A stretch of DNA of 37,473 bases, from the NCBI GenBank assembly GCA_018303785.1, contig JAGVXM010000014.1, forward strand, positions 1 through 37,473, written 5' to 3'. The position numbers and the translations under genes were made by a program. Origin of the DNA: Candidatus Pacearchaeota archaeon. GTDB taxonomy: Archaea > Nanobdellota > Nanobdellia > Pacearchaeales > GW2011-AR1. Positions 1 to 18,861 of this stretch are shown piece after piece (position 1 is the stretch's first letter; each line of letters opens with the position of its first letter). Under the pieces are notes generated by a model. That model saw only the letters and a list, made by a program, of their open reading frames with translations, was not told the DNA's origin and ran no database searches.

Positions 1-558
1 TAAACCATAAAACTGTTTGAATTGGTCGCTAATATCTCTATAACTTAATCCTTTGTAAAAACAATCCATCGCTAAGCAAACAAATTTAGAATTTCCTTTG
101 ATGTTCTTTATCGGTTCTAAGACAAATCGTTTCTTGCACGACTTACAACAATAAAGCTGTTTCATTCCTAATTTTGTTTTGCGTTGTCCTCGCCTAAAAA
201 TTTCTTCGTGAGAACAATAAGGGCAAACGTCTTTCTGCGGTTGCTCGATAATTAACTCGATTTCTTTTTCTACTTGTGGCTCTACTTCATATTTTGCTTT
301 AACTTTTTCAAAAAGTAAAATTGCCTTGATGTGTTTGCAGTAAAGATTTTTACCTACACACCTTCGCTTAAAGTCTTGGCACTCACAAGAATAACTATCA
401 ATATGAGTAACCCTGTATTTCTTAGTGCTATCAAATTGAGAAGGAACAAGATAAGTAAACTCGTCTATCTGCGAGGGGTTGCCATTCTGTAAGATGGCTT
501 TTGCTCGTTCGTTTCTCCATTCCGAGAAATTCTTGATATATTCTTGTGTGTTTTCCAT
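1..558 (-). CDS. SWIM zinc finger + Zn-ribbon + HTH transposase, probably IS6-like DDE (N-terminal 186 aa; continues off the window)
   Basis: Manual translation from ATG at 558: MENTQEYIKNFSEWRNERAKAIL...YSCECQDFKRRCVGKNLYCKHIKA (SWIM CxC...CxH)...VCPYCSHEEIFRRGQRKTKLGMKQLYCCKSCKKRF (InsA-like Zn ribbon)...AMDCFYKGLSYRDISDQFKQFYGL (HTH as in IS6-family N-termini). Open to position 1; the DDE domain is not visible. Confidence 0.8.
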   Translation of the reverse strand, partial: MENTQEYIKNFSEWRNERAKAILQNGNPSQIDEFTYLVPSQFDSTKKYRVTHIDSYSCECQDFKRRCVGKNLYCKHIKAILLFEKVKAKYEVEPQVEKEIELIIEQPQKDVCPYCSHEEIFRRGQRKTKLGMKQLYCCKSCKKRFVLEPIKNIKGNSKFVCLAMDCFYKGLSYRDISDQFKQFYGL

Positions 559-559
559 A

Positions 560-607
560 TTACCTATTTACTAATTATATTAAGCAATAGCTAATATATA
601 AACCTTT
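560..607 (-). promoter_or_regulatory. Transposase promoter (BRE/TATA) and candidate operator
   Basis: Minus strand reads GAAAGGTTTATATA (TATA at 595-602). The 16-mer TTACCTATTTACTAAT at 560-575 is repeated at 1054-1069. Confidence 0.55.
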
Positions 608-636
608 CTGTTTTTCAGCAGATATGTTTTTAAGGC

Positions 637-665
637 GTATTTACATAATAATACAAAGTAAATAC
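637..665. promoter_or_regulatory. Inverted-repeat operator GTATTTAC-N13-GTAAATAC upstream of the AbrB-like gene
   Basis: Perfect 8-bp inverted repeat (637-644 / 658-665) between a TTTTTAAG box (627-634) and ATG 669. Confidence 0.5.
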
Positions 666-668
666 ACA

Positions 669-845
669 ATGAAAAGAGAATTTGATAGAAAAATCTGGAA
701 AACAGGAAATTCCTATGTCGTAACAATTCCATCGGAAACGGTAGAGAGATATGACTTACAAGACAAATTTATAACAGTAGCAATTACCGACGAGGAAAAT
801 TCTTTAATTCTTAAAAGCAAAGGGAGTAAGAAAAATGCAAGATAA
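669..845 (+). CDS. AbrB/MazE/SpoVT-type DNA-binding protein
   Basis: MKREFDRKIWKTGNSYVVTIPSETVERYDL has the GNS-x-VVTIP swapped-hairpin signature. Start moved from 624 to 669 by alignment with the paralogue at 18643-18792. Confidence 0.85.
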   Translation: MKREFDRKIWKTGNSYVVTIPSETVERYDLQDKFITVAITDEENSLILKSKGSKKNAR

Positions 846-1041
846 ATTAAGAGCAATGATAAAGTGGTTTGAAAAAAGAGTTGATGAAGTTGAGAATGAT
901 TATAAGGAAAAACATAAAGACGATTTTGACTTTGCCAAAATGAAAAAATACGCTAACAGAAAATTAAAAAAAGAAAGACAGATATTAATTCAAATGAACA
1001 TATCCCCCGCAATCAATCTCGTAGGAAACCGAAAGGTATAA
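835..1041 (+). CDS. Small hypothetical protein
   Basis: 68-aa ORF overlapping the AbrB-like gene end; no motif recognised. Confidence 0.6.
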   Translation: MQDKLRAMIKWFEKRVDEVENDYKEKHKDDFDFAKMKKYANRKLKKERQILIQMNISPAINLVGNRKV

Positions 1042-1069
1042 ATACTAATCATGTTACCTATTGACTAAT

Positions 1070-1336
1070 ATGGTTAATCCAATTCCAAAATGGGTGTGGA
1101 GAAGATATGCTAAACTCTGGCAAAAGTTCAAGAATAAATCATTTACTTTTGAACAAGCCCAGAAAGAGTTAAAGCATTTAGATAGGAATCTAATCAGCGT
1201 TATGTTCAACGAACTAAAAAACGCTGGTTGGCTCAATGTTAATTTAAGCGAGGAAGATACACGAAAGAGGGTTTACACTTTGAACAATCCAGTAGAAATC
1301 GTGGAAAAGGTAAAAAATGATACTACAAAAAATTAA
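1070..1336 (+). CDS. Winged-helix (MarR-like) DNA-binding protein
   Basis: SVMFNELKNAGWLNVNLSEEDTRKRVYTL matches a recognition helix plus DxRxR wing. ATG 1070 is preferred over TTG 1061, with TATAAATA at 1037-1044. Confidence 0.75.
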   Translation: MVNPIPKWVWRRYAKLWQKFKNKSFTFEQAQKELKHLDRNLISVMFNELKNAGWLNVNLSEEDTRKRVYTLNNPVEIVEKVKNDTTKN

Positions 1337-2438
1337 AACAGAACATAGCGATGAGAAAACAGGTTTGGTTGTTAAGAGAATAACAACATCAGAATGGGAA
1401 CACCTTAACCACAAAATTTCGGCAAACAACTCCTTATTTAATTGTGAACAACAACGGCTCGCTTATTCGAAACCAATCTTAAACATTCCATTTCAGACAC
1501 ATCATATATACTACAATAAAGAAAGACACATTTGGGACTTTGACGGATTAGAAGAAAGCAAAGAACACGCTAAAAAACAAAAGAGATTTTATTTACCATT
1601 CCAACAACGAACAGAAAAGCAATGGTTAGCTCTTGACTTTTCCGAAGCAGAGGGCGACTTTCAAGATTTAGTTTATAGAGGTCTGCCTCTCGTTCCTTAT
1701 TCAATTCCACCCACAGCATCGTTAGATGAATGGAAAATAAGGAAAGCTATCGCAGAAAAAATATTACATCCAAGCCAAGTATTAGTAGTTATTTTCTATT
1801 CTAAACACGACACGAAAAAGTTTGAAGCCATATTTAATTACGAGTTTGAACACTCAAAATTAATCGGGATGCAATGTTACAATATTAACGATAACAATAC
1901 ATTTACAAATTTAATGAAAATAAAGCTACGCAACTCTATGTTACAAGTTGGAGATGAAGCACCATTACTTTTGGCTTTGAATTACGGAAAGATACAACGC
2001 AGTTTCTCAAATGTTTCAGGCAGTTTCGCTTATGGATGTTTTGGATTTGATATTTTCTCTGAAAGGCAAATAAATATTAAAAATTTGCCATCTGAAATCA
2101 TAAAGCAAATCAAAAATAAAACTCCAGACGAGATTATGAGGTATGATAAAATAATTGGCGGTTACAACTTATCAGCAGAACAGGAATTTTGGGATGGTAG
2201 AAATATAACGAGAGAATTTTTAGAAAGCGTTAAAGTATCTGAAGGACTTACGCCATTCCAAGCAATTCAATGGGCTAACCATCGTGGACAGCAAGAAGAT
2301 TTTGATATGCTTAATGATGCCATATTAGAAACAGCTTATCCAGAGAAAGAAGATACAGCTTTAAGGTGTATTAGTGACAAGGAAAGGTGGTCTGTTTTTT
2401 GGAAAACTAAAATGCCTCAAACGGCAGAGGCAGTTTAA
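1317..2438 (+). CDS. Hypothetical protein, possibly a degenerate tRNA-guanine-transglycosylase (TGT)-like TIM barrel
   Basis: 373-aa ORF coupled to its neighbours. It weakly resembles the TGT N-terminal beta hairpin, the strand-8 motif (GCFGFDIFS vs GIDMFD) and the C-terminal helix (ANH...MLNDAILE). The CDS is secure; the function is not. Confidence 0.45.
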   Translation: MILQKIKTEHSDEKTGLVVKRITTSEWEHLNHKISANNSLFNCEQQRLAYSKPILNIPFQTHHIYYNKERHIWDFDGLEESKEHAKKQKRFYLPFQQRTEKQWLALDFSEAEGDFQDLVYRGLPLVPYSIPPTASLDEWKIRKAIAEKILHPSQVLVVIFYSKHDTKKFEAIFNYEFEHSKLIGMQCYNINDNNTFTNLMKIKLRNSMLQVGDEAPLLLALNYGKIQRSFSNVSGSFAYGCFGFDIFSERQINIKNLPSEIIKQIKNKTPDEIMRYDKIIGGYNLSAEQEFWDGRNITREFLESVKVSEGLTPFQAIQWANHRGQQEDFDMLNDAILETAYPEKEDTALRCISDKERWSVFWKTKMPQTAEAV

Positions 2439-3425
2439 ATGGAACAAAAATCACTAAATAAAACCCTCAATAAAGCAAGTAAGTCAAAGAATGATGATTT
2501 TTATACTCAACTAACTGATATTGAAAAAGAGTTAAAACACTATAAACCATATTTCAAAAACAAAGTAGTTTTTTGTAACTGTGATGACCCTCGTGTAAGT
2601 AATTTCTTTCATTATTTTTCATACAATTTTGAGCAATTAGGATTGAAAAAATTAATTACTACATGCTACAAAAATCGGCAAATGAATTTGTTTAGTGAAA
2701 ACAAATCTGAAAAAGCTATTTACTTAGAATATACTGGTGACAAAAATAAAAACAATATTCCAGACCCAAAAGAAATAGGAATTAAACATTTAAAGGGAGA
2801 TGGAGATTTTCGTAGTAAAGAATGTATTGAACTGTTAAAACAATCCGATATTGTTGTTACCAATCCCCCCTTTTCATTGTTCAGAGAATATGTTGCACAA
2901 TTAATAAAATATGATAAAAAATTTATAATCCTCGCACAGCAAAATGCAATATCCTACAAAGAAATTTTTAAATTACTCAAAGAAAATAAAATCTGGTTGG
3001 GAGTGGATAATAATGGGACAAAATGGTTTCAAGTTCCTGACAATTACGAAATAACAACCGAATCCAGAAAGAAAATTGAGAATGGTAAAAAGTTTTTTAG
3101 TATGGGAAGTATTGTTTGGCTTACAAACTTAGATATTGAAAAAAGGCATGATGATTTAATTCTTTACAAAACATATAGCTCAAAAGATTACCCTAATTAT
3201 GATAATTATAATGCAATAAATGTTGATAAAGTAAGTGATATTCCTAAAGATTATAAGGGCGTAATGGGTGTTCCTGTAACTTTTTTAGACAAATATAATC
3301 CAGAACAATTTGAAATAATTGGACAAATGGTGACTACCAAAATTGATGAATTCAATCATGGATACCCTTATATCAAGGGTAAGAAGATTTACGCAAGAAT
3401 TTTGATTAAGAATAAGAAAATTTAA
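2439..3425 (+). CDS. Adenine-specific DNA methyltransferase, EcoRI family
   Basis: KNDDFYT, VVFCNCDDP, GDGDFRSKEC, VVTNPPFSLFREY (motif IV NPPF), GVMGVPVTFLDKYNPEQF. Confidence 0.92.
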   Translation: MEQKSLNKTLNKASKSKNDDFYTQLTDIEKELKHYKPYFKNKVVFCNCDDPRVSNFFHYFSYNFEQLGLKKLITTCYKNRQMNLFSENKSEKAIYLEYTGDKNKNNIPDPKEIGIKHLKGDGDFRSKECIELLKQSDIVVTNPPFSLFREYVAQLIKYDKKFIILAQQNAISYKEIFKLLKENKIWLGVDNNGTKWFQVPDNYEITTESRKKIENGKKFFSMGSIVWLTNLDIEKRHDDLILYKTYSSKDYPNYDNYNAINVDKVSDIPKDYKGVMGVPVTFLDKYNPEQFEIIGQMVTTKIDEFNHGYPYIKGKKIYARILIKNKKI

Positions 3426-3449
3426 ATAATTGGTTTTTAATATAATTCT

Positions 3450-4526
3450 GTGAAAATAGAACTCAAGAAGATTACAGTAAGCGAATTATCAAAAGGTTAT
3501 CAAGACAACGCAGAAGCGGGTGTAGTTGGGTTCGGTGGTAAGCTTGACATTCGTCCACCTTTTCAAAGAGAATTTGTTTATAAAGATAAACAACGTGACG
3601 CAGTTATCAATACTGTTACAAAAGATTTTCCTTTAAATGTAATGTATTGGTCGGTTCGTGATGATGGAACTTTTGAAATAATAGATGGACAGCAGAGAAC
3701 AATTTCACTCTGTCAATATGTTCTTGGTGACTTTTCAATTAATGGATTAGCGTTTCATAATTTACCCAAAGACAAAAGAGAACAGATATTAAAATATCCC
3801 CTAACGATTTATTTGTGTTCAGGAACTGACAGCGAAAAATTAGAATGGTTCAAAACAATTAACATCGCAGGAGAAGAACTTACAGACCAAGAATTACGAA
3901 ATGCTGTTTATTCTGGTTCATGGGTTTCTGATGCCAAACGCTATTTTTCTAAAAATAGCCGACCAAAAATAGGTGATGATTATTTAAGTGGTTCTGCAAT
4001 CCGACAAGAATATTTAGAAACAGCTATTGACTGGATTTCAAAGGGAAAAATAGAGGATTATATGTCAAAGCATCAGCATGAACCTAATGCAAATGAATTA
4101 TGGTTATATTTTCAAGCAGTTATAAATTGGGTAAAAGTTACCTTCCCCAACTATCGTAAAGAGATGAAAGCTGTTTCTTGGGGAGTTTTATATAATGAGT
4201 TTAAAGATAAAAAACTCGATTCAAAAAAGTTGGAAAAAGAGATAACTGAATTAATGAAAGATGATGATGTTACAAAAAAGTCTGGTATTTATCCTTATGT
4301 TTTGACAAGAAACGAGAGATACCTAAACATTCGTGCCTTTACAGATAATCAAAAGAGAGAGGCATACGAAAGACAAGAGGGTATTTGTCCAAAATGTAAA
4401 GAACATTTTAAGATAGAGGGAATGGAAGCAGACCATATAACTCCTTGGCATGAAGGCGGAAAAACTATGGCGGAAAATTGTCAGATGTTATGCAAACAAG
4501 ATAATAGACTTAAATCTGGGATATAA
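3450..4526 (+). CDS. DUF262 (GmrS/ParB-like) + HNH endonuclease
   Basis: RPPFQREFVY and IIDGQQRT (DUF262), FKTIN, C-terminal CPKC...EADHITPWHEGG...NCQMLC...N (HNH). GTG start. Confidence 0.9.
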   Translation: MKIELKKITVSELSKGYQDNAEAGVVGFGGKLDIRPPFQREFVYKDKQRDAVINTVTKDFPLNVMYWSVRDDGTFEIIDGQQRTISLCQYVLGDFSINGLAFHNLPKDKREQILKYPLTIYLCSGTDSEKLEWFKTINIAGEELTDQELRNAVYSGSWVSDAKRYFSKNSRPKIGDDYLSGSAIRQEYLETAIDWISKGKIEDYMSKHQHEPNANELWLYFQAVINWVKVTFPNYRKEMKAVSWGVLYNEFKDKKLDSKKLEKEITELMKDDDVTKKSGIYPYVLTRNERYLNIRAFTDNQKREAYERQEGICPKCKEHFKIEGMEADHITPWHEGGKTMAENCQMLCKQDNRLKSGI

Positions 4527-4535
4527 CTTGCAAAA

Positions 4536-4586
4536 AAGCCACGCCACTTGACAGCACTATTCAAGCCACGAATTCTTGACACTCTC
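4536..4586. repeat. Tandem imperfect repeat / candidate transposon terminal inverted repeat
   Basis: AAGCCACG-CCA-CTTGACAGCACT (4536-4558) and AAGCCACG-AATT-CTTGACACTCTC (4563-4586). The reverse complement starts GAGAGTGTCAAG, reminiscent of IS6-type GGCACTGT ends. Confidence 0.6.
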
Positions 4587-4754
4587 ATGAACTCGCTTGA
4601 TGACGATTTTGGCAACTTAAATTATTATTAAAGCTCGCATACTCACTTTTTTATGTTAAGCTTACGATTAATTATAACAAATTTTATAAATAATTCGTGA
4701 TGAAATAAAAGGACAAAGACAAACGCTTAAAAAACCCTCTTTCTTATTTATTTC

Positions 4755-5009
4755 ATGTCTATTGATACTCTATTGTTACAAGAATTTGTCCAGAATCTTC
4801 CTCCAGAAATGATTGGCAGAATTGGAACTTTAGTTACAATTTTTCAGGCTTTAGGTATTGTTTTTATTATTTATTTTATATTTTTAATTGTAAAAATAGT
4901 ATTAGATATACGTTCTAAAATATTCATTAAAAAGACGTATGGAATTGTTCAAAGCATTGAGGAGAAGTTGGATAAGCTTGCTATAAATAAAAGTAAGAAG
5001 AGGAAATAA
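4755..5009 (+). CDS. Small single-pass membrane protein
   Basis: Hydrophobic stretch LVTIFQALGIVFIIYFIFLIV followed by a basic tail. Confidence 0.75.
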   Translation: MSIDTLLLQEFVQNLPPEMIGRIGTLVTIFQALGIVFIIYFIFLIVKIVLDIRSKIFIKKTYGIVQSIEEKLDKLAINKSKKRK

Positions 5010-5010
5010 T

Positions 5011-5337
5011 TTATTTCTTTAAAATAATTTCAATAGCCGACACAAAAATTCTTTTGCCTTCCTTATTTTCGAATTGTTCACTTGAAATTCTTATGTCATC
5101 AATTTTTATGTTTTCATCTTTGAGAAAGGTTCTTCGTGCGACTTCAACTATATCTACTGCCTTTGAAATGAATTTTCCTCGCGCGGAAACAATAACTTCA
5201 TCCTGCCCTTTATTTTGGAATTGCATCACAACACTTGTTACATAGTTCATAAAAGGTTTTACACCTACGAAAATTATATTGTCTTTGTCGTTCACTGACG
5301 TTTCTTTATTGTTCTCTGTTTCCTTTTCTTCTGCCAT
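5011..5337 (-). CDS. albA: DNA/RNA-binding protein Alba
   Basis: IFVGVKPFMNYV, ARGKFISKAVDIVE, VSAIEI. Confidence 0.95.
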   Translation of the reverse strand: MAEEKETENNKETSVNDKDNIIFVGVKPFMNYVTSVVMQFQNKGQDEVIVSARGKFISKAVDIVEVARRTFLKDENIKIDDIRISSEQFENKEGKRIFVSAIEIILKK

Positions 5338-5346
5338 GATTGCTCT

Positions 5347-5538
5347 TTACTTTTTTTCTAGCTTTTGCCTTTTTACTTTTCGTGCAATAAATCCAGCAGT
5401 TTGGTTTCGTATCTTTTTACTTGGGATCAGTCCTTTGAGAATTTCTTTGTTATCATCAAACTTGTCAGTAAAGCTATTTTCCTCTAAGATCAACGTGTTT
5501 GCTGTTCTCTTGACCAGTTTAGATTTTATTCTTCCCAT
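5347..5538 (-). CDS. rps17e: 30S ribosomal protein S17e
   Basis: MGRIKSKLVKR...FTDKFDDNK...SKKIRNQTAGFI. Confidence 0.95.
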   Translation of the reverse strand: MGRIKSKLVKRTANTLILEENSFTDKFDDNKEILKGLIPSKKIRNQTAGFIARKVKRQKLEKK

Positions 5539-5648
5539 TTCTGATGTCCAATAGTAATATTTAGAATATGTCTTTTTAAATATTATTGTTTTAAATTTTT
5601 ATGGTGATCAGAATGCCTGCGTATTTTTAATGCACTGCAGTATTTTTG

Positions 5649-6620
5649 TTACAATTCAATCTTCTTTGCTTTAAGAATAGAGGAGTATTTCTTGAGATAT
5701 TCACTGGCTTTTTTGCTTATTGATCCTGTGTAGAGCAGGAATGCTGGTAGAGGAATTTTTTGAGCATTAGACAACAAGGCAATGAAATCAGATTCGCTTA
5801 TGGATTTTTTGTCTTTTGCAAGAGTGTAAAAGTGAATACTTCCTAATTGCGATTTTATTTCGGTTATGCATAACAGTTCTTTATTTTTGTATTCTTTTTC
5901 CTCAATAATTTTTAAACCAATTTTTTCAATGTATTCTGTTGCTTTAATTACAAATGACGATTTTGGCCTAACCTTTATCTCTTTTATTTTTTCTGGAATA
6001 ACTAAAGGATTTTCAAATGTTTTAATTGTTTCAAAATTATTTTCTTTCAGCTTTTTCGCAACTGGTTTTTTTCCTTGAATTACTTCTTTTATTTCTAGTT
6101 TAGGAGAATTTGCTATCTCAATGATTGGTTCTGATTTTTTTGGAGTTTCCGGTTCTTTTATTTCTTGTTTTACTTCTGGCTTGAACTTCCAGGATAAGAC
6201 CTTATTTCTGGCATCATCTTCGATTGTGTCGTGAAAACGCCAGTATAATTCGTTATCTACCATAAAACCAAAGGAAAAATCTTTTATTAATCGTAATGCC
6301 ACGCGAATCGCAGGCTCTTGTTCTCTATCTTTTATTATTTTTCTTTCTTTCAATAATAAAAATGCTTCTGCTTCTTTTGGATGCATGTAATTATAAAAAT
6401 CTTCAACCTTTGATTCTTGTCCTGCTAAAAAATATACTGGTGATCCTCCTACTTTGAGACTGCTGATTTTTATTTTTTTATCATCCACTAATTCAGATAA
6501 GAATGCGGAAATAAAGAGAGTACTTAAGTTCAATTCTTTTGCAAAGTGAATCGGTAAACAAGGTCCTCTTCTTTGGATTACTGCAAGAATTTTACTATGC
6601 GCCTCATTTATTTGCATCAT
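5649..6620 (-). CDS. Hypothetical protein (N-terminal winged helix, Lys/Glu/Pro-rich linker, C-terminal alpha/beta domain)
   Basis: ILAVIQRRGPCLPIHFAKELNLSTLFISAFLSELV...KVGGSPVY resembles a wHTH. Confidence 0.7.
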   Translation of the reverse strand: MMQINEAHSKILAVIQRRGPCLPIHFAKELNLSTLFISAFLSELVDDKKIKISSLKVGGSPVYFLAGQESKVEDFYNYMHPKEAEAFLLLKERKIIKDREQEPAIRVALRLIKDFSFGFMVDNELYWRFHDTIEDDARNKVLSWKFKPEVKQEIKEPETPKKSEPIIEIANSPKLEIKEVIQGKKPVAKKLKENNFETIKTFENPLVIPEKIKEIKVRPKSSFVIKATEYIEKIGLKIIEEKEYKNKELLCITEIKSQLGSIHFYTLAKDKKSISESDFIALLSNAQKIPLPAFLLYTGSISKKASEYLKKYSSILKAKKIEL

Positions 6621-7834: not shown

Positions 7835-10800
7835 ATGGCTGAAGTGAAGGACATGGATTTTTATCAGATAGAGAAGAAGTGGCAAGAGAGATGGGAGAAG
7901 AAAAAAATTTTCCAAGTTTCTGAGAGTTCTAAAAAGAAAAAGTATTATGTGTTAGAACAATTTCCTTATCCTTCTGGTAGCGGCTTACACGTTGGCCATT
8001 CTTTTATATACACCGTCGGAGATATATATGCGCGATTCAAACGAATGCAAGGATTTAATGTGTTATATCCCATGGGATTTGATTCTTTTGGTCTTCCTGC
8101 TGAAAATGCGGCAATACAAGCACAAAGTCATCCGAAAAAATTTACTGAAGAGGCTATTCGAAATTTCAAGAGTCAGATGAAAACGTTCGGTTATAGTTAT
8201 GATTGGAACCGAATGATTGAAACACACAAACCAGATTTTTACAAATGGGATCAATGGATTTTCCTCAAGATGTTTGAAAAAGGGCTCGCATATAGAAAAA
8301 AATCTCCAGTTAATTGGTGTCCAAAATGTAATACTGTATTAGCAAATGAACAAGTTCAAAATGGAAAATGTTGGAGGCATGAGGAAACTACTGTAGAAAT
8401 AAAACAGCTAGAACAATGGTTTTTTAGAACGACTTCCTATGCTGATGAATTATATTCTAATCTTGAAAAGCTTGAATGGCCTGAATTTATCAAAACTGCA
8501 CAAAGAAATTGGATTGGTAAAAGTCATGGGACTGAGATTATATTTGAAATTGAAACTGAACGAAGGCCAAATTTTATTTTATTGCACGGTTATACTAGTT
8601 CTCCTAAAGAGAATTTTTTTCCATGGTTGAAAAAAGAATTGGAAAAAAGAGGATACACAGTTCAGGTTCCCGTTTTACCGAATACGAATAATCCCGACGT
8701 TTCTGAACAGGTGGATTTTGTTTTAAAAAATTGTAAGTTTGATGAACAGACTGTTTTATTGGGGCATAGTTTGGGAAGTGTGATCGCATTGAAAGTTTTG
8801 GAAAAAGTTAAGAAGCCCATAAGAAAATTGGTTTTAGCTGCAGGATTTTCTGAGCCTAAGTTTTTAGATAAAAAAAGATCGTTTGAAAAAACGTTTGATT
8901 GGAAATTTGATTTTGAGAAAATTAAAAAAAATGTTTCAAAGATAAAAATTCTTCGTGCAACGAATGATAGTGCAGCCCCTCAAGAAAGAGCTGAAACATT
9001 GCAACAGCATTTTGGTGGAGAGATACTTGATTTTACTGCGGAGAATAATCATATTAGCGGTAAAGAAGAGCATGTTGTTTTGCAGCAATGTTTGGAAACT
9101 TTTCCAATTTTCACGACGAGACCTGATACTATTTTTGGAGTAACTTTTATGGTGATAAGTGCACAGCATCCTCAATTGATGGATTTTATAACTGAAAAAC
9201 AGAAAACTGTTGCACAAAAATTCTTGAAAAAAATAACAAGTACCAAGCAGGAAGATATGGATAAGCTGGGAAAAGAGGGAGTTTTTACTGGTAGTTATGC
9301 GCGTAATCCATTGAATGGAGAAAAAGTACCAATTTATGCCAGTAATTTTGTCATTGCTGATTATGGTTCTGGAATGATCATGGCAGTACCTGCACATGAT
9401 CCAAGAGATTTTGAGTTTGCAAAAAAGTATGATATTCCAATTAAGCCTGTTTTATTGAAAAAAAGCGACGAGAGTTATAGTTATGTTATGGGCATAAATG
9501 AAGAGGATATAAAAAAAATAGGTATTACTATAATTGAAAAAACAAAATCTGGTTTCTTTAAAATCAAGATTCCCCCTGATAAATTAGAAGATTATAAAGC
9601 GTTTATCCGCAAAAATATGAAAGCTGGTTTTTGGAATGAGTTTACCACAAAAAAAGGATTTTACTTTATTTTCAAACACAAAGATGGCAAGATTGAGGAA
9701 ATGGAGTTAAACGAAAAAACTAACGATATTATAGATAAATATGGGATGATATTTAATGGAGAAATTCCAAAAAATAATCCTGAAAATGTTTATAGCTGGT
9801 TAGCAAAAAATGATTTCTACAAAGAATTATTGATTCACCCTGGTCCTGGAATTTTAATTAATTCTGAAGACTTTAATGGTTTAGATACTGAAGAGGCAAA
9901 AGAACATATCACTATTTATTTAGTTGAAAAAAAATTAGGAAGGAAAGCTGTAAATTATAAACTTAAGGATTGGTTGATTTCTCGCCAAAGATTTTGGGGA
10001 ACTCCTATTCCTATTGTTTATTGTGATAAATGCGGTATTGTTTCTGTTTCTGAAAAAGATTTGCCCGTAAAATTACCTGAAGATATTAAATTTAACAGCA
10101 CAAAAAATCCGTTAGTTAATTATAAACCTTTTATTGAAATCTCCTGTCCGAAATGTAAATCTCTAGCACGACAAGAAACTGATACTATGGATACATTTGT
10201 AAATTCGAGCTGGTATTTTTTGAGATATTGTGATCCAAAAAATGATAAAAAAATATTTGATACAAAAAAAACTGATTATTGGATGCCTATTGATATTTAT
10301 ATTGGTGGGAAGGAGCACGCAACGATGCATGACATTTATTTTAGATTTTATACTAAATTCTTAAGAGATATTGGTTTATTGAAATTTGATGAACCTGCTG
10401 TCAAATTATTTAATCAAGGTTTTATCTTAGGTGAAAATAATGAAAAGATGTCAAAATCTAAAGGCAATGTGGTGTTACTTAATGAAGCTGCTAAAAAATA
10501 CGGCGTTGATCCGACGAGGTTATTCTTGGTTTCCAATGCTTCTCCCGAAAGCGACAAAGCATGGAGCAATGCCGGTGTTGAAGGGAGTGTAAAGTTCATA
10601 AAAAAAATTATTGATTACTTTGCTCATTTTAAATCAGGAAAAACGTCGAAACGAGCTGAAAGTAAAATGCATAAATACACAAAAGAAATTACCGCTTACA
10701 TTAGTAATTTTCGATACGACCTAGCTGTAATACGCTTGAGAGAATTATTTGACATTTTAAATGAGGAAACAATTAGTACGAAGGATGCTGGAATCTATTT

Positions 10801-11188
10801 GAAATTACTACATCCATTTTGTCCGCATGTCAGTGAAGAATTGTGGGAAAAATTAGGAAATAAAGGTTTTATTTCTTTAGAATCATGGCCGGAAGCTGAT
10901 GAAACAAAAATTGATCAAACAATCGAGAAACAAGACGAAGCCGTGAATCAAGTTGTTAATGATGTTATGAATATTTTGAAAATCATGCGCGAGAAACAAG
11001 AGAAGGAAGGGGAACAGATTTATTTGTATGCTTTGCCGAATGAAGTTAGTTTTTATAATTCTGAAAGAATATCAATTAAGATCGGAAAAAAGGTCAGTGT
11101 TTTTGCGGTTAATGATAAAAACAAATTTGATCCTGAACAAAAATCTGGAAAAACAAAGCCTGGAAAACCTGGAATTTATATTGTATGA
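7835..11188 (+). CDS. leuS: Leucine--tRNA ligase, bacterial-type, with an inserted alpha/beta hydrolase and a second inserted domain
   Basis: FPYPSGSGLHVGH (HIGH), KMSKSKGN, editing TTRPDT and AVPAHDPRD, DWLISRQRFWGTPIP. Confidence 0.97.
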   Translation: MAEVKDMDFYQIEKKWQERWEKKKIFQVSESSKKKKYYVLEQFPYPSGSGLHVGHSFIYTVGDIYARFKRMQGFNVLYPMGFDSFGLPAENAAIQAQSHPKKFTEEAIRNFKSQMKTFGYSYDWNRMIETHKPDFYKWDQWIFLKMFEKGLAYRKKSPVNWCPKCNTVLANEQVQNGKCWRHEETTVEIKQLEQWFFRTTSYADELYSNLEKLEWPEFIKTAQRNWIGKSHGTEIIFEIETERRPNFILLHGYTSSPKENFFPWLKKELEKRGYTVQVPVLPNTNNPDVSEQVDFVLKNCKFDEQTVLLGHSLGSVIALKVLEKVKKPIRKLVLAAGFSEPKFLDKKRSFEKTFDWKFDFEKIKKNVSKIKILRATNDSAAPQERAETLQQHFGGEILDFTAENNHISGKEEHVVLQQCLETFPIFTTRPDTIFGVTFMVISAQHPQLMDFITEKQKTVAQKFLKKITSTKQEDMDKLGKEGVFTGSYARNPLNGEKVPIYASNFVIADYGSGMIMAVPAHDPRDFEFAKKYDIPIKPVLLKKSDESYSYVMGINEEDIKKIGITIIEKTKSGFFKIKIPPDKLEDYKAFIRKNMKAGFWNEFTTKKGFYFIFKHKDGKIEEMELNEKTNDIIDKYGMIFNGEIPKNNPENVYSWLAKNDFYKELLIHPGPGILINSEDFNGLDTEEAKEHITIYLVEKKLGRKAVNYKLKDWLISRQRFWGTPIPIVYCDKCGIVSVSEKDLPVKLPEDIKFNSTKNPLVNYKPFIEISCPKCKSLARQETDTMDTFVNSSWYFLRYCDPKNDKKIFDTKKTDYWMPIDIYIGGKEHATMHDIYFRFYTKFLRDIGLLKFDEPAVKLFNQGFILGENNEKMSKSKGNVVLLNEAAKKYGVDPTRLFLVSNASPESDKAWSNAGVEGSVKFIKKIIDYFAHFKSGKTSKRAESKMHKYTKEITAYISNFRYDLAVIRLRELFDILNEETISTKDAGIYLKLLHPFCPHVSEELWEKLGNKGFISLESWPEADETKIDQTIEKQDEAVNQVVNDVMNILKIMREKQEKEGEQIYLYALPNEVSFYNSERISIKIGKKVSVFAVNDKNKFDPEQKSGKTKPGKPGIYIV

Positions 11189-17666: not shown

Positions 17667-18359
17667 ATGGACAAAGATTTTGAATCAAGAAAACAAGAAA
17701 TTGGAAAGAGATATCATATTAATTTTTATAAATTGGAGAAGGAGCAGGAAAAACTAGCTAAGGGAATTGTTGTAAAAGATTCTTTTGATATTTCTCTTGC
17801 TGAAAGGTTTGGCGCTTTTGACACTATTTTTATTAATAATAAAATTCTTTGTTGTTTTATTGTCTGTGATTCTCAGTATGAAATAATTGATCGAGCGTAT
17901 GTTTTTGAAAAAGCTAAATTTCCTTATGTTTCAGGTTTTAGAAATTATCGTGAATTGCCGTCGATGATTGCAGCTTTTGAAAAAATAAATGAAAAACCTG
18001 ATGTTGTTTTTATTTCTGGTCAGGGCATTATTCATCCTCGATTAGGTTTAGCAAGTCATTTTGGTTTGGTTACTGGAATTCCTACTATCGGAGTTTCAAG
18101 CGGAGTTATAGAATGTGATGTAGAAAATGATAAAGATAATAGCGATATTTTAAAAAAAGGTAAAAGGGTTGGTAAGGTTTTGCTTGTAAAAATTGGCAGC
18201 AGCCCATTATATGTTAGTCCTGGACACAATATTTCTGTAAAGACAGCATATGAACTAAGCAAGAAGTTAGTCGTTATTCCTCATAAACGTCCTGAACCTT
18301 TACATCTTGCTAGTAAATACACGAGTAAGGTACGAAAAGAAATTATTGATCATGTATAA
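17667..18359 (+). CDS. nfi: Endonuclease V family protein with non-canonical active site
   Basis: FPYVSGFRNYRE, GQGIIHPRLGLASHFG, PTIGV, PLYVSPGH, PEPL. Confidence 0.9.
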   Translation: MDKDFESRKQEIGKRYHINFYKLEKEQEKLAKGIVVKDSFDISLAERFGAFDTIFINNKILCCFIVCDSQYEIIDRAYVFEKAKFPYVSGFRNYRELPSMIAAFEKINEKPDVVFISGQGIIHPRLGLASHFGLVTGIPTIGVSSGVIECDVENDKDNSDILKKGKRVGKVLLVKIGSSPLYVSPGHNISVKTAYELSKKLVVIPHKRPEPLHLASKYTSKVRKEIIDHV

Positions 18360-18646
18360 TTTTTTAGTTTTGGGATAAATATTCTTACCAATAAACTTAC
18401 TATTAATACTGAGATTGTTGTAAACAAAAAAATGTAGACAAAATAGGAGGTTATTGAATATGTTTTTTCTGTAAAAGGGCTTTGTTGAATTTCAGATTCG
18501 TTAGTTTCATTATTCATTACAAATCCAGTTATTTTTTTAGGATTATTCTCTTGAAGTTTTCCCATATAGAATACAAGGGTGAGTGATAAGACGACAATTG
18601 CAATTACTAGTGTTGTTCGTGCAATCACCCCTCTTTTATTTATCAT
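18350..18646 (-). CDS. Small membrane protein with class III-like signal (KRG)
   Basis: MINKRG followed by a hydrophobic helix, ITGFV, and a second C-terminal TM. Confidence 0.7.
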   Translation of the reverse strand: MINKRGVIARTTLVIAIVVLSLTLVFYMGKLQENNPKKITGFVMNNETNESEIQQSPFTEKTYSITSYFVYIFLFTTISVLIVSLLVRIFIPKLKNYT

Positions 18647-18792
18647 TTTTCTTTTTTTACGTCTTCTGGATCCAAGTCCACGGCGATAAAATCTCCTTCT
18701 TGTAATTCAAATCGATCAATTGTATCTTTGGGAATTGTTACTACAAATGAATTTCCCACTTTCCTAATCTTCGCATCGAATTTTCGTTTCAT
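18643..18792 (-). CDS. AbrB/MazE/SpoVT-type DNA-binding protein (49 aa, below the ORF-track cutoff)
   Basis: MKRKFDAKIRKVGNSFVVTIPKDTIDRFELQEGDFIAVDLDPEDVKKEK; ATGA overlap with the downstream gene. Confidence 0.9.
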   Translation of the reverse strand: MKRKFDAKIRKVGNSFVVTIPKDTIDRFELQEGDFIAVDLDPEDVKKEK

Positions 18793-18861
18793 AATTGTTT
18801 GTTTTAGAATATATTGAAAAACAATTATATTTTAAGACACTAAGGGAAAAATCCCTTAGTG
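18791..18861. repeat. Two perfect 10-bp inverted repeats in the AbrB leader
   Basis: ATAATTGTTT (18791-18800) / AAACAATTAT (18819-18828); CACTAAGGGA-AAAA-TCCCTTAGTG (18838-18861). Confidence 0.7.

Follow-up and report, generated by a model that had tools for sequence, protein, structure and literature searches.

The stretch of DNA considered here, referred to below as the window, is an entire contig (C8, positions 1–37,473) of G000, a Candidatus Pacearchaeota archaeon genome of 0.87 Mb that is 86.8% complete. Its first 4586 positions most probably (probability roughly 0.85) represent about 4.6 kb, the larger part, of a unit transposon of IS6-like type whose full length is estimated at 5.3 kb, with cargo between the transposase and the other inverted end. 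In such an element, one DDE transposase would sit at one end, and all of the cargo, including a restriction-modification (R-M) pair, would be enclosed between it and the inverted end at 4537–4586. A unit transposon with cargo upstream of a single transposase had been proposed in an earlier note on this DNA, and the proposal was borne out by the ends, target duplications and identical copies at two sites that were found in orthologous elements. C-numbers below denote contigs of G000, and L-numbers denote related loci from other genomes, metagenomes and viral contigs.

The ends of related elements were sought with an automatic scan for end pairs in the 80 best metagenomic loci, which returned 27 pairs. 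Three of these (L095, L126 and L135) were excluded as chance matches, having non-canonical tips and a mismatch in the duplication; 24 canonical pairs were kept, 23 with perfect repeats and one (L087) with a repeat of 8/9. As L117 duplicates L012 and L114 duplicates the site of L112, these amount to 22 distinct metagenomic insertions. With L010, L012, L044, L045, L046 and L167 (on a contig filed as viral), the set comprises 28 distinct complete insertions of 27 distinct elements, 2621–7084 bp long, whose inverted ends enclose the transposase and the cargo. A 9-bp target duplication was found in all 28 insertions (27 perfect, 8/9 in L087). The earlier note had suggested looking for a duplication, and had given its sequence for a length of 8 bp; a duplication does flank the transposase plus cargo in the relatives, and its length is 9 bp rather than 8. 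In orthologues, the left inverted end begins GAGAGTGT just past the transposase stop codon and overlapping it, which is the inverted copy that had been predicted for that side, and its partner is located beyond the cargo, not beside the transposase. As a control, a perfect 9-bp duplication together with inverted ends matching at 11 or more of 16 positions was present at the true transposase end in 23/79 metagenomic loci; at decoy positions, the same signal appeared in 1/55 (+200 nt), 0/51 (+400 nt) and 0/79 loci (−400 nt). In 14 metagenomic loci whose cargo side extends for about 3.3–10 kb, the scan detected no end pair, and the cargo-side end was not found at L047. The member at L167:127–2974, 2848 bp long with a perfect 9-bp repeat, is complete on a contig classed as viral.

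The unit was also found at more than one place. The 4117-bp element of L112/L114 and that of L113 are identical at 4117/4117 positions at two sites; the homology ends exactly at the tips, and the 9-bp repeats differ between the sites. Transposase and cargo therefore move as one unit, and the relatives show what a unit transposon is expected to show: ends that enclose both, a duplication that flanks the whole, and occurrence of the whole at different sites. A pseudo-compound transposon or an IS26-type translocatable unit was considered and rejected, as none of the complete elements has a second copy of its transposase flanking the cargo.

Each end contains two bipartite sites, in which a TGTYAAG-like core is followed, after 3–6 bases, by CGTGGCT, CGGGAG or a variant of these. 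The outer site starts at base 5, and the inner site lies about 30–45 bases further in. The tip reads either GAG or GGG, all members share the TGT core, and a caaa part is present only in some of them (L045, L047, L082 and L141). By a crude regular-expression count, all four right half-sites belong to one class in 18/27 elements and all four left cores in 22/27. Such co-variation within an element is expected of sites that are bound by the element's own transposase, and from these sequences we infer that the transposase binds them. The window conforms to this layout. The two-site arrangement of its cargo-side end is common to all 27 complete relatives compared, both of its sites are of the TGTCAAG / CGTGGCT type, and the tip falls exactly at 4586; the terminal-repeat-like motif that the earlier note had described after the last gene thus turned out to be an intact two-site end.

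The 186 residues of the transposase that are encoded in the window contain a SWIM finger (residues ~55–82, E 7e-4), a zinc ribbon (~110–146, DUF7838, E 0.005) and the start of a helix-turn-helix (HTH). Full-length orthologues at L012 and L010 (412–413 aa) have the order SWIM finger, zinc ribbon, HTH and DDE_Tnp_IS240, the last with 38.2–38.3 bits in Pfam (cut-off 27), and the 412-aa protein of L012 is 80% identical to the window over all 186 residues present. D220, D289, E329 and K336 are conserved in the transposase alignment (A4), with K or R at +7 from the glutamate. The best NCBIfam family of the orthologous transposase is IS6 (NF033587; 91.5 bits, E 5.5e-26). This score lies under the equivalog cut-off of 125, and for that reason the element is named 'IS6-like'. 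The DDE domain, which had been put forward as a check, is thus present in the full-length orthologues. An IS6-like match at E 1e-20 or better was found in 63 of the 401 sampled genomes of the phylum, close transposase relatives (68–78% identity) occur in five of these sampled genomes besides G000, and a scan of metagenomes gave at least 535 transposase relatives.

Two loci differ in their transposase. At L006:5832–7172 (minus strand), a 446-aa transposase of the DDE_Tnp_1 (IS4) type, also with a SWIM finger, takes the place of the IS6-like transposase, upstream of genes for AbrB, a small protein, a winged helix-turn-helix (wHTH) protein, a protein with a predicted fold like that of tRNA-guanine transglycosylases (the TGT-fold protein) and an EcoRI-type methyltransferase; its N-terminal SWIM finger is the same as that of the window family, on another transposase family. 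L048:10138–11178 (genome G375) is a minimal relative of 1041 bp, in which the transposase begins at the zinc ribbon and neither the SWIM finger nor cargo is present; its cargo-side end overlaps the transposase start codon and its 9-bp repeat is 8/9. It is either an ancestral form or a deletion derivative.

A simpler reading of the window would be an ordinary defence island beside a single IS6-like insertion sequence, in which mobility would be confined to the transposase, with the R-M genes as its neighbours on the chromosome. Canonical IS6 elements, with one gene in 0.7–0.9 kb, and the minimal relative at L048 agree with such an arrangement, and an end could in principle be hidden at 559–623. 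However, no bipartite site was found between the window's transposase and its cargo, and within positions 1–6000, the only site pair is that at 4537–4581. Together with the position of the second end beyond the cargo in the 28 related insertions, the 9-bp duplication around the whole and the identical 4117-bp unit at two sites, this largely refutes the reading, which is now very improbable.

The unit transposon resembles known elements in some respects and departs from them in others. According to the available part of a review of the IS6 family (Varani et al. 2021, PMC7986276), its members are mostly 0.7–0.9 kb and up to about 1.8 kb long, with a single transposase gene, 8-bp repeats and short inverted repeats tipped by a G dinucleotide and carrying cTGTt / caaa motifs; clade h has a zinc finger, clade i has a zinc finger and an extra N-terminal extension, and ISDsp3 is the sole member with a reported passenger gene, a single hypothetical one. 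The window family shares with the long-transposase clades h and i of IS6/IS26 the DDE_Tnp_IS240-type core, the K/R seven residues after the glutamate and the N-terminal zinc ribbon and HTH. Its terminal repeats agree with those of IS6 in part, starting with G and having a TGT core, and are GGTTCTGTCGCAAA-like in some relatives; its single transposase gene reaches into one end. It differs in length (2.6–7.1 kb with cargo versus 0.7–1.8 kb and a single gene), in the duplication (9 bp versus 8), in its longer ends with two bipartite sites each, and in its N-terminal SWIM finger; the additional domain of clade i is not named in the part of the review that is available (PMC7986276). Like ISDsp3, it is an IS6-family-type element with passengers inside the ends. 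Unlike ISDsp3, which has a single hypothetical passenger and is a single copy in a bacterium, it is a large archaeal family (≥535 transposase relatives) with whole R-M systems and defence genes.

It is known in general that R-M systems are moved by insertion sequences or in a transposon-like manner (PMC3031569, PMC2853133). Tn7-like transposons carry defence cargo, as described in the accessible part of Benler et al. (2021, PMC8649781). The window family has in common with both the use of a transposon as a vehicle and a variable cargo between conserved ends; it differs from them in belonging to another transposase family, in its single-protein machinery, in its much smaller size and in its DPANN hosts. 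The accessible text of a survey of insertion sequences in archaea from 2026 (PMC13343696) uses neither 'passenger' nor 'SWIM' anywhere; 'DPANN' occurs only twice, and 'cargo' and 'restriction' occur twice each, in the reference list as far as shown. No description of R-M-carrying or SWIM-bearing IS6-like elements was returned by full-text literature searches in a library that covers few subscription journals. Judged from its sequences, the family is an IS6-like lineage that has turned into R-M-carrying unit transposons with their own end structure and a 9-bp duplication. Its transposase would bind the two bipartite sites of each end, move the whole unit and duplicate 9 bp of the target; by analogy with IS6, the chemistry and pathway would involve a replicative cointegrate that is resolved by host recombination, of which the sequences show the end products, single copies with duplications.

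The window copy is incomplete in the assembly. As the contig starts inside the transposase gene, the DDE domain and the left end are outside both the window and the assembly. The distance from the tip to the transposase start codon is 1253 nt in L012. By this measure, the window copy is short of about 695 nt, which would comprise the left terminal repeat and the coding sequence for an estimated 226 aa that include the DDE domain, and the complete element would be about 5.3 kb long. With a duplication of 9 bp, the expected left copy would be ATGAACTCG, beyond the end of the contig. An end motif or the duplicated 9-mer was sought at the contig ends of G000, and none was found. The window copy would be expected to have an intact left end.

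The insertion site was compared with those of relatives. In all six congeneric genomes examined, the Alba-S17e-p323 block was found without element genes within about 12 kb, with a TM84 homologue in four of them, a result in line with the empty sites that the earlier note had suggested looking for. In three of these six, the genes upstream of the block are homologous to genes on contig C37 of G000, and at L161, a homologue of the gene at C37:149–703 adjoins Alba. On account of this synteny, the reversed contig C37 is the likely left flank of the element; its first bases hold neither an element end nor the 9-mer. Contigs of four public runs were also aligned to window 1–6500. Element contigs and flank contigs are separate in all four runs, and the long flank contigs of X1–X3 stop at 4616. 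In X5, a contig of 388 letters matches the window from exactly 4587 and is preceded by 21 non-matching letters, so that the predicted boundary has another left neighbour there, whether an empty site or a different allele. In 4/4 runs, word depth was roughly twice as high in the flank contigs as in the element contigs; since depth of this kind does not measure a proportion of cells, this is only a hint of a polymorphic site.

Several points speak against the window as a mobile IS6-like unit transposon. The rest of the transposase, its C-terminus, is on no contig of G000, no second copy of the window element was found in that genome, the duplication differs from the 8 bp of the IS6 family, the NCBIfam score is below the equivalog cut-off, and this particular copy could be truncated or immobile, given that its left end and DDE domain are outside the assembly. 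On a rival reading, the window copy would be a dead relic, a former unit transposon without a left end or DDE domain that is now fixed. The contig end inside the transposase gene, the rest of which is on no other contig, would fit this reading. Decay does occur at related loci, as seen from the transposase of L048, which has no N-terminal part, and from the TGT-fold gene, which is frameshifted in L009 and L010. In the window, however, all seven open reading frames (ORFs) of the element portion are open and the right end keeps both sites, while assembly usually breaks contigs within a repeated gene. The separate element and flank contigs of the four runs and the different left neighbour at 4587 also point to a polymorphic rather than a fixed site. 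A relic is for these reasons improbable, and the copy is treated here as part of a unit transposon.

The features of the element portion are collected in Table 1. An ORF and Pfam scan recovered every gene that the earlier note had listed, each where it had been placed. From 4755 onward, the window returns, as had been noted, to archaeal housekeeping genes (Alba, S17e, LeuRS, AlaRS, MetRS, MCM, TBP and DNA ligase), and the DPANN-like host that had been suggested agrees with the relatives of the locus, which belong to Woesearchaeota or Nanoarchaeota records.

Table 1. Features of the element portion of the window and of its predicted boundary.
Feature	Position	Strand	Remarks
Transposase, N-terminal 186 aa	1..558	-	ORF open at contig end; SWIM finger and zinc ribbon
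Divergent control region between transposase and cargo genes	559..623	.	AT-rich, with a conserved stretch
AbrB/SpoVT/MazE-fold small DNA-binding protein, 73 aa	624..845	+	Pfam MazE_antitoxin E 1.1e-4
Small lysine-rich protein, 68 aa, probably helical, no known family	835..1041	+	
20-nt motif beside the wHTH start codon	1050..1069	.	18/20 repeat of 556-575
Winged-helix protein (wHTH), 88 aa from ATG 1070; TTG 1061 also possible	1070..1336	+	Weak Pfam matches of wHTH type
373-aa protein, predicted TGT-like (beta/alpha)8 fold, no sequence family	1317..2438	+	
EcoRI-family N6-adenine DNA methyltransferase	2439..3425	+	Pfam EcoRI_methylase E 4.8e-134; PADLOC MTase_II 2.2e-129
DUF262 (ParB/GmrSD_N-like) and HNH nuclease	3450..4526	+	Pfam GmrSD_N 5.6e-18, HNH 6.2e-11
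Cargo-side terminal repeat	4537..4586	-	Inner site 4537-4553, outer site 4564-4581, tip 4582-4586
Right-hand 9-bp target duplication (predicted), ATGAACTCG	4587..4595	.	Expected from the 9-bp duplications of relatives

The cargo of the family consists largely of R-M systems. For this comparison, 26 distinct complete elements were scanned (L167 was left out), and 24 of them carry a DNA methyltransferase. In the family, the number of called cargo ORFs (≥55 aa) within the ends ranges from one to seven. An EcoRI-like methyltransferase with a DUF262-HNH protein, as in the window, is found in seven (L046, L067, L070, L082, L092, L103 and L141), fused type IIG or type I-like enzymes in ten (L010, L073, L086, L088, L110, L112, L128, L132, L139 and L140), type III Mod and Res in two (L012 and L084), and two-gene type II systems in five (L044, L045, L075, L098 and L119), the nuclease of L098 being ApaLI-like. 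The two elements that have no methyltransferase carry two small unknown proteins (L078) and an ATPase-wHTH protein (L087). Four R-M types thus occur between conserved ends, which is the variation of cargo that the earlier note had anticipated.

The methyltransferase and the DUF262-HNH protein of the window are best read as one type II R-M system. The DUF262-HNH protein matches the PADLOC model REase_II PDLC03418 over its full length (residues 1–356, E 5.8e-143), proteins of its kind accompany the same family of methyltransferases in L005, L046, L067, L070, L082, L092, L103 and L141, and the two adjacent genes, with their MTase_II and REase_II matches, have the gene content of a type II R-M system. 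In view of the REase_II match, the protein is most probably the nuclease that belongs with the methyltransferase, rather than a separate type IV enzyme. It shares an N-terminal DUF262 (GmrSD_N) with type IV enzymes of the GmrSD/BrxU type (DUF262 and DUF1524). It differs from them in its C-terminal nuclease, which is HNH (PF01844) with no DUF1524 in the Pfam listing, in that proteins of the window type always stand with an EcoRI-like methyltransferase, and in the full-length match to a type II endonuclease. Avoidance of GAATTC was considered as a sign of the specificity of the system and was not seen in G000, where the observed/expected ratio is 0.75 and the site is outside the 12 lowest of 64 palindromes. 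Such a pair would protect the host and, at the same time, make loss of the element costly. In eight other elements (L044, L045, L075, L098, L110, L119, L128 and L132), the first gene after the transposase, before the R-M genes, encodes a zinc-ribbon protein of 66–84 aa with weak DUF7571/DUF7130 matches; these may be controller proteins of the R-M systems.

Among the elements with the EcoRI-like pair, the slot that separates the transposase from the methyltransferase has varying contents. A module of four genes (AbrB, the small protein, wHTH and the TGT-fold protein) fills it in the window, L005 and L067, and likewise in the partial loci L006, L007 and L099. In L046 and L070, the slot contains a RelA/SpoT-like protein, that of L070 matching the PADLOC candidate PDC-S33 (5e-122); in L103, a Fic protein (SoFic, 3e-107); in L092 and L141, AAA-type ATPases; and in L082, unknown proteins. 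As far as sequence matches go, known or candidate defence genes appear to alternate with the window module at one position, which is an association only. On this basis, the module would occupy the slot in which sister elements hold their known or candidate defence genes.

The small genes of the module have some recurring properties. The AbrB position is occupied in relatives by an AbrB or a ribbon-helix-helix-like protein (the latter judged by eye), and the AbrB-like protein matches NCBIfam doc_partner with 29 bits, below the cut-off. The 68-aa protein occurs solely with the wHTH and TGT-fold genes and forms one cluster from the window, C30, L010, L012 and L067. The wHTH gene is always directly 5' of the TGT-fold gene and overlaps it, by 20 nt in the window, and 25 columns are invariant in 11 homologues. 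When the complex of the wHTH and TGT-fold proteins was predicted, the median score was 0.42 (runs 0.69, 0.29 and 0.42) and that of the best control was 0.00; the runs agree in at least 73% of contacts, and the pLDDT of the partner is at least 79. In the calibration of this procedure, the mark was reached by 116/157 solved complexes and by 2/215 mismatched pairs, with scores of 0.60 or less in 18 of those 157 solved complexes and in both passing mismatches. The prediction is at most a hint that the wHTH protein may bind the TGT-fold protein. The conserved stretch within the divergent region (...TATATAAACCTTTC...) recurs in L005, L007, L010 and L012, and this region likely holds archaeal TATA-type promoters.

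A 20-nt motif is present at the start of the transposase gene (556–575) and again at the start of the wHTH gene (1050–1069), with 18/20 positions in common and opposite orientation relative to the two genes. Similar pairs are found in L005, L007 and L012, and a less clear one in L010. As an 18/20 repeat within 6 kb has, by a rough estimate, about even odds of arising by chance, it is the recurrence in relatives alone that gives weight to the motif, which is possibly a shared operator. Elsewhere in the window, at 18353–18813 (minus strand), a gene for a paralogue of the AbrB/MazE-like protein (51% identity over 53 aa) precedes an ORF of 98 aa that belongs to no family; this may be a toxin-antitoxin pair among the housekeeping genes.

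G000 has further IS6-like loci. The element at C30:13733–18874 (L002:5734–10875) is 5142 bp long and has inverted ends matching at 24/25 positions and a nine-base repeat of 8/9; its transposase has no SWIM finger and is located in the middle of the element. Its cargo includes homologous genes for AbrB, the small protein, wHTH and the TGT-fold protein (36% identity), together with an N6_N4 methyltransferase, a 179-aa unknown protein and a 73-aa zinc-ribbon ORF. L013 is a relative of this element with a Dam-type methyltransferase. A third IS6-like transposase (293 aa), at C47:15534–17290 (L003:6532–8291), stands between a DUF4145 gene and a gene for an N6_N4 methyltransferase that runs off the contig end; this locus may be another such element.

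The position of the module raises the question of whether it is cargo at all. It adjoins the transposase, contains a copy of the 20-nt motif found in the transposase leader and accompanies two distinct IS6-like transposases, those of the window and C30, as would suit a part of the transposition or regulatory machinery, such as a target selector or regulator. The module was found, however, in only 3 of the 26 elements scanned for cargo (L010, L012 and L067) and in 4 of 83 transposase-anchored metagenomic and viral loci. Elements that have no module show perfect duplications, one of them having moved recently, and SoFic or PDC-S33-type genes occupy the same slot in other elements. Since most elements are free of the module and its TGT-fold gene is frameshifted in L009 and L010, it is dispensable for transposition. 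A role as machinery is accordingly a poor candidate, and the module is regarded here as cargo. Cargo is reshuffled even between close relatives: at L004:1–2355 and L074, the gene for the nearest homologue of the TGT-fold protein (91% identity) precedes genes for an unknown protein of 128 aa and a Holliday-junction-resolvase-like endonuclease, after which the element ends, with no methyltransferase.

The 373-aa protein of the module had been called an orphan. This holds for its sequence, which falls into no family, and does not hold for its predicted structure, which has a TGT-like fold. The family is small: 48 relatives were found in a collection clustered at 90%, and 50 representatives at E ≤0.001 among 1.84 billion; one member is in a Caldisericia bacterial record, and the family occurs in 4 of the 401 sampled genomes of the phylum. 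A model predicted from an alignment of 30 sequences (pLDDT 92.8, pTM 0.91), on which the fold assignment rests, was compared with 48,161 representative solved chains. The four best chains all belong to the TGT superfamily, namely archaeosine TGT (ArcTGT; Z 17.4, root-mean-square deviation 4.3 Å, 289 aligned residues), QTRT2 (Z 16.6, 4.3 Å, 296), bacterial TGT (Z 16.3, 4.3 Å, 287) and Cap10 (Z 14.3, 4.4 Å, 277), and the similarity covers the whole length of the (beta/alpha)8 fold. The best other TIM barrel reached Z 10.9 (201 aligned), and DpdA reached Z 10.8 (257 aligned). An earlier, weaker model gave the same order. In a protein atlas, the top look-alikes are unnamed archaeal clusters, and a cluster with 14% PF01702 members at rank 12 (score 0.84) is a lead only. 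In a library of viral structures, phage TGT-like proteins ranked 16 and 19 (E 0.02–0.03). D245 and D277 are conserved in at least 90% of 30 homologues.

The assignment to the TGT fold, and the role in defence that might follow from it, have to be weighed against a number of results that point the other way. No match to the protein was found in Pfam at E 0.01, the TGT family (PF01702) included. An hhalign comparison of 30 orphans with 13 ArcTGTs of relatives gave a probability of 0.6%, with no match, local or global. The zinc site CxCxxC...H is absent, the four cysteines of the protein being off-pattern, while the CxCxxC motif is present in 13/13 ArcTGTs of relatives. The value for DpdA lies within the TIM-barrel background, and the viral structure library gave weak matches only, mostly GH5 TIM barrels (best E 3.5e-4). 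PADLOC has no match for any of the four module proteins, and the frameshifts in L009 and L010 affect the module itself. For the 373-aa protein, NCBIfam was equally silent, and a profile search of the PDB returned a chance match only (E 0.95). The protein thus resembles the TGT superfamily (PDB 1iq8, 6fv5, 3unt, 9ntn and 7ui4) in its predicted whole-length fold, with Z 14.3–17.4 to four of these, and differs from it in having neither sequence homology nor the zinc motif.

From this model, the 373-aa protein is a candidate nucleic-acid base-exchange or glycosylase enzyme. DpdA (the DNA preQ0 insertase) and Cap10 (type IV CBASS) are encoded among defence genes, and the TGT-fold gene of the window likewise sits among such genes. 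DpdB is the ATPase partner of DpdA; in the window, the partner is a small wHTH protein, not a DpdB-type ATPase. G000 encodes its own ArcTGT and a QueC homologue, and QueD was not found in this 86.8%-complete genome. It was also considered whether the protein could be the cognate restriction enzyme of the neighbouring methyltransferase. This was rejected, as the protein co-occurs with type II, III and IIG systems that have their own nucleases, and is contradicted by L004, which has no methyltransferase.

What the TGT-fold protein does can be proposed only tentatively. Its role might be in defence or modification: possibly guided by the wHTH protein, it would exchange or remove a base of DNA or tRNA. 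Rather more speculatively, the wHTH and TGT-fold proteins may together constitute a new system for base exchange or base excision in DPANN archaea, borne by transposons and either DNA-modifying or defensive, which would occupy the defence slot of R-M-carrying IS6-like elements and form a branch of TGT that is unrecognisable in sequence beside DpdA and Cap10, with the family as the main R-M shuttle among ultra-small archaea. A different function may be envisaged, in which the TGT-fold protein and its small partners would be a module of the toxin-antitoxin or abortive-infection type that attacks tRNA, with the DNA-binding proteins as antitoxin or repressor. The first gene of the module is of an antitoxin type (AbrB/MazE or ribbon-helix-helix-like), the closest folds of the TGT-fold protein are tRNA enzymes, and sister elements hold Fic and RelA/SpoT-like genes in the same slot; enzymes of these two kinds often target translation. 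Against this, Pfam, PADLOC and NCBIfam gave no match to known toxin families, there is no sign of toxicity, and the module consists of four genes rather than two. Such a module is unlikely, and a base-exchanging or base-removing enzyme is kept as the tentative reading.

One observation concerns the genes beyond the element. The LeuRS gene at 7835–11185 (plus strand) encodes 1117 aa, with a serine-hydrolase/alpha-beta-hydrolase-like insert (Pfam Ser_hydrolase 1.5e-11, residues 248–418) just before the editing domain.

IS6/IS26 elements are known as very small insertion sequences with one gene, which mobilise other genes solely in the form of pseudo-compound transposons or translocatable units. 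The elements described here represent a large archaeal IS6-like branch that would act as true unit transposons, with a 9-bp duplication, doubled bipartite sites and an added SWIM finger. The small genomes of DPANN archaea are rich in R-M and other defence systems, and the near-constant R-M cargo of the family offers a concrete, testable vehicle for the spread of R-M and defence genes among these organisms. The short, defined ends and the single transposase might also become a genetic tool for organisms that have none. As the variable slot holds known defence genes in some elements, it is a place to seek new ones, for which the TGT-fold gene would be the first candidate.

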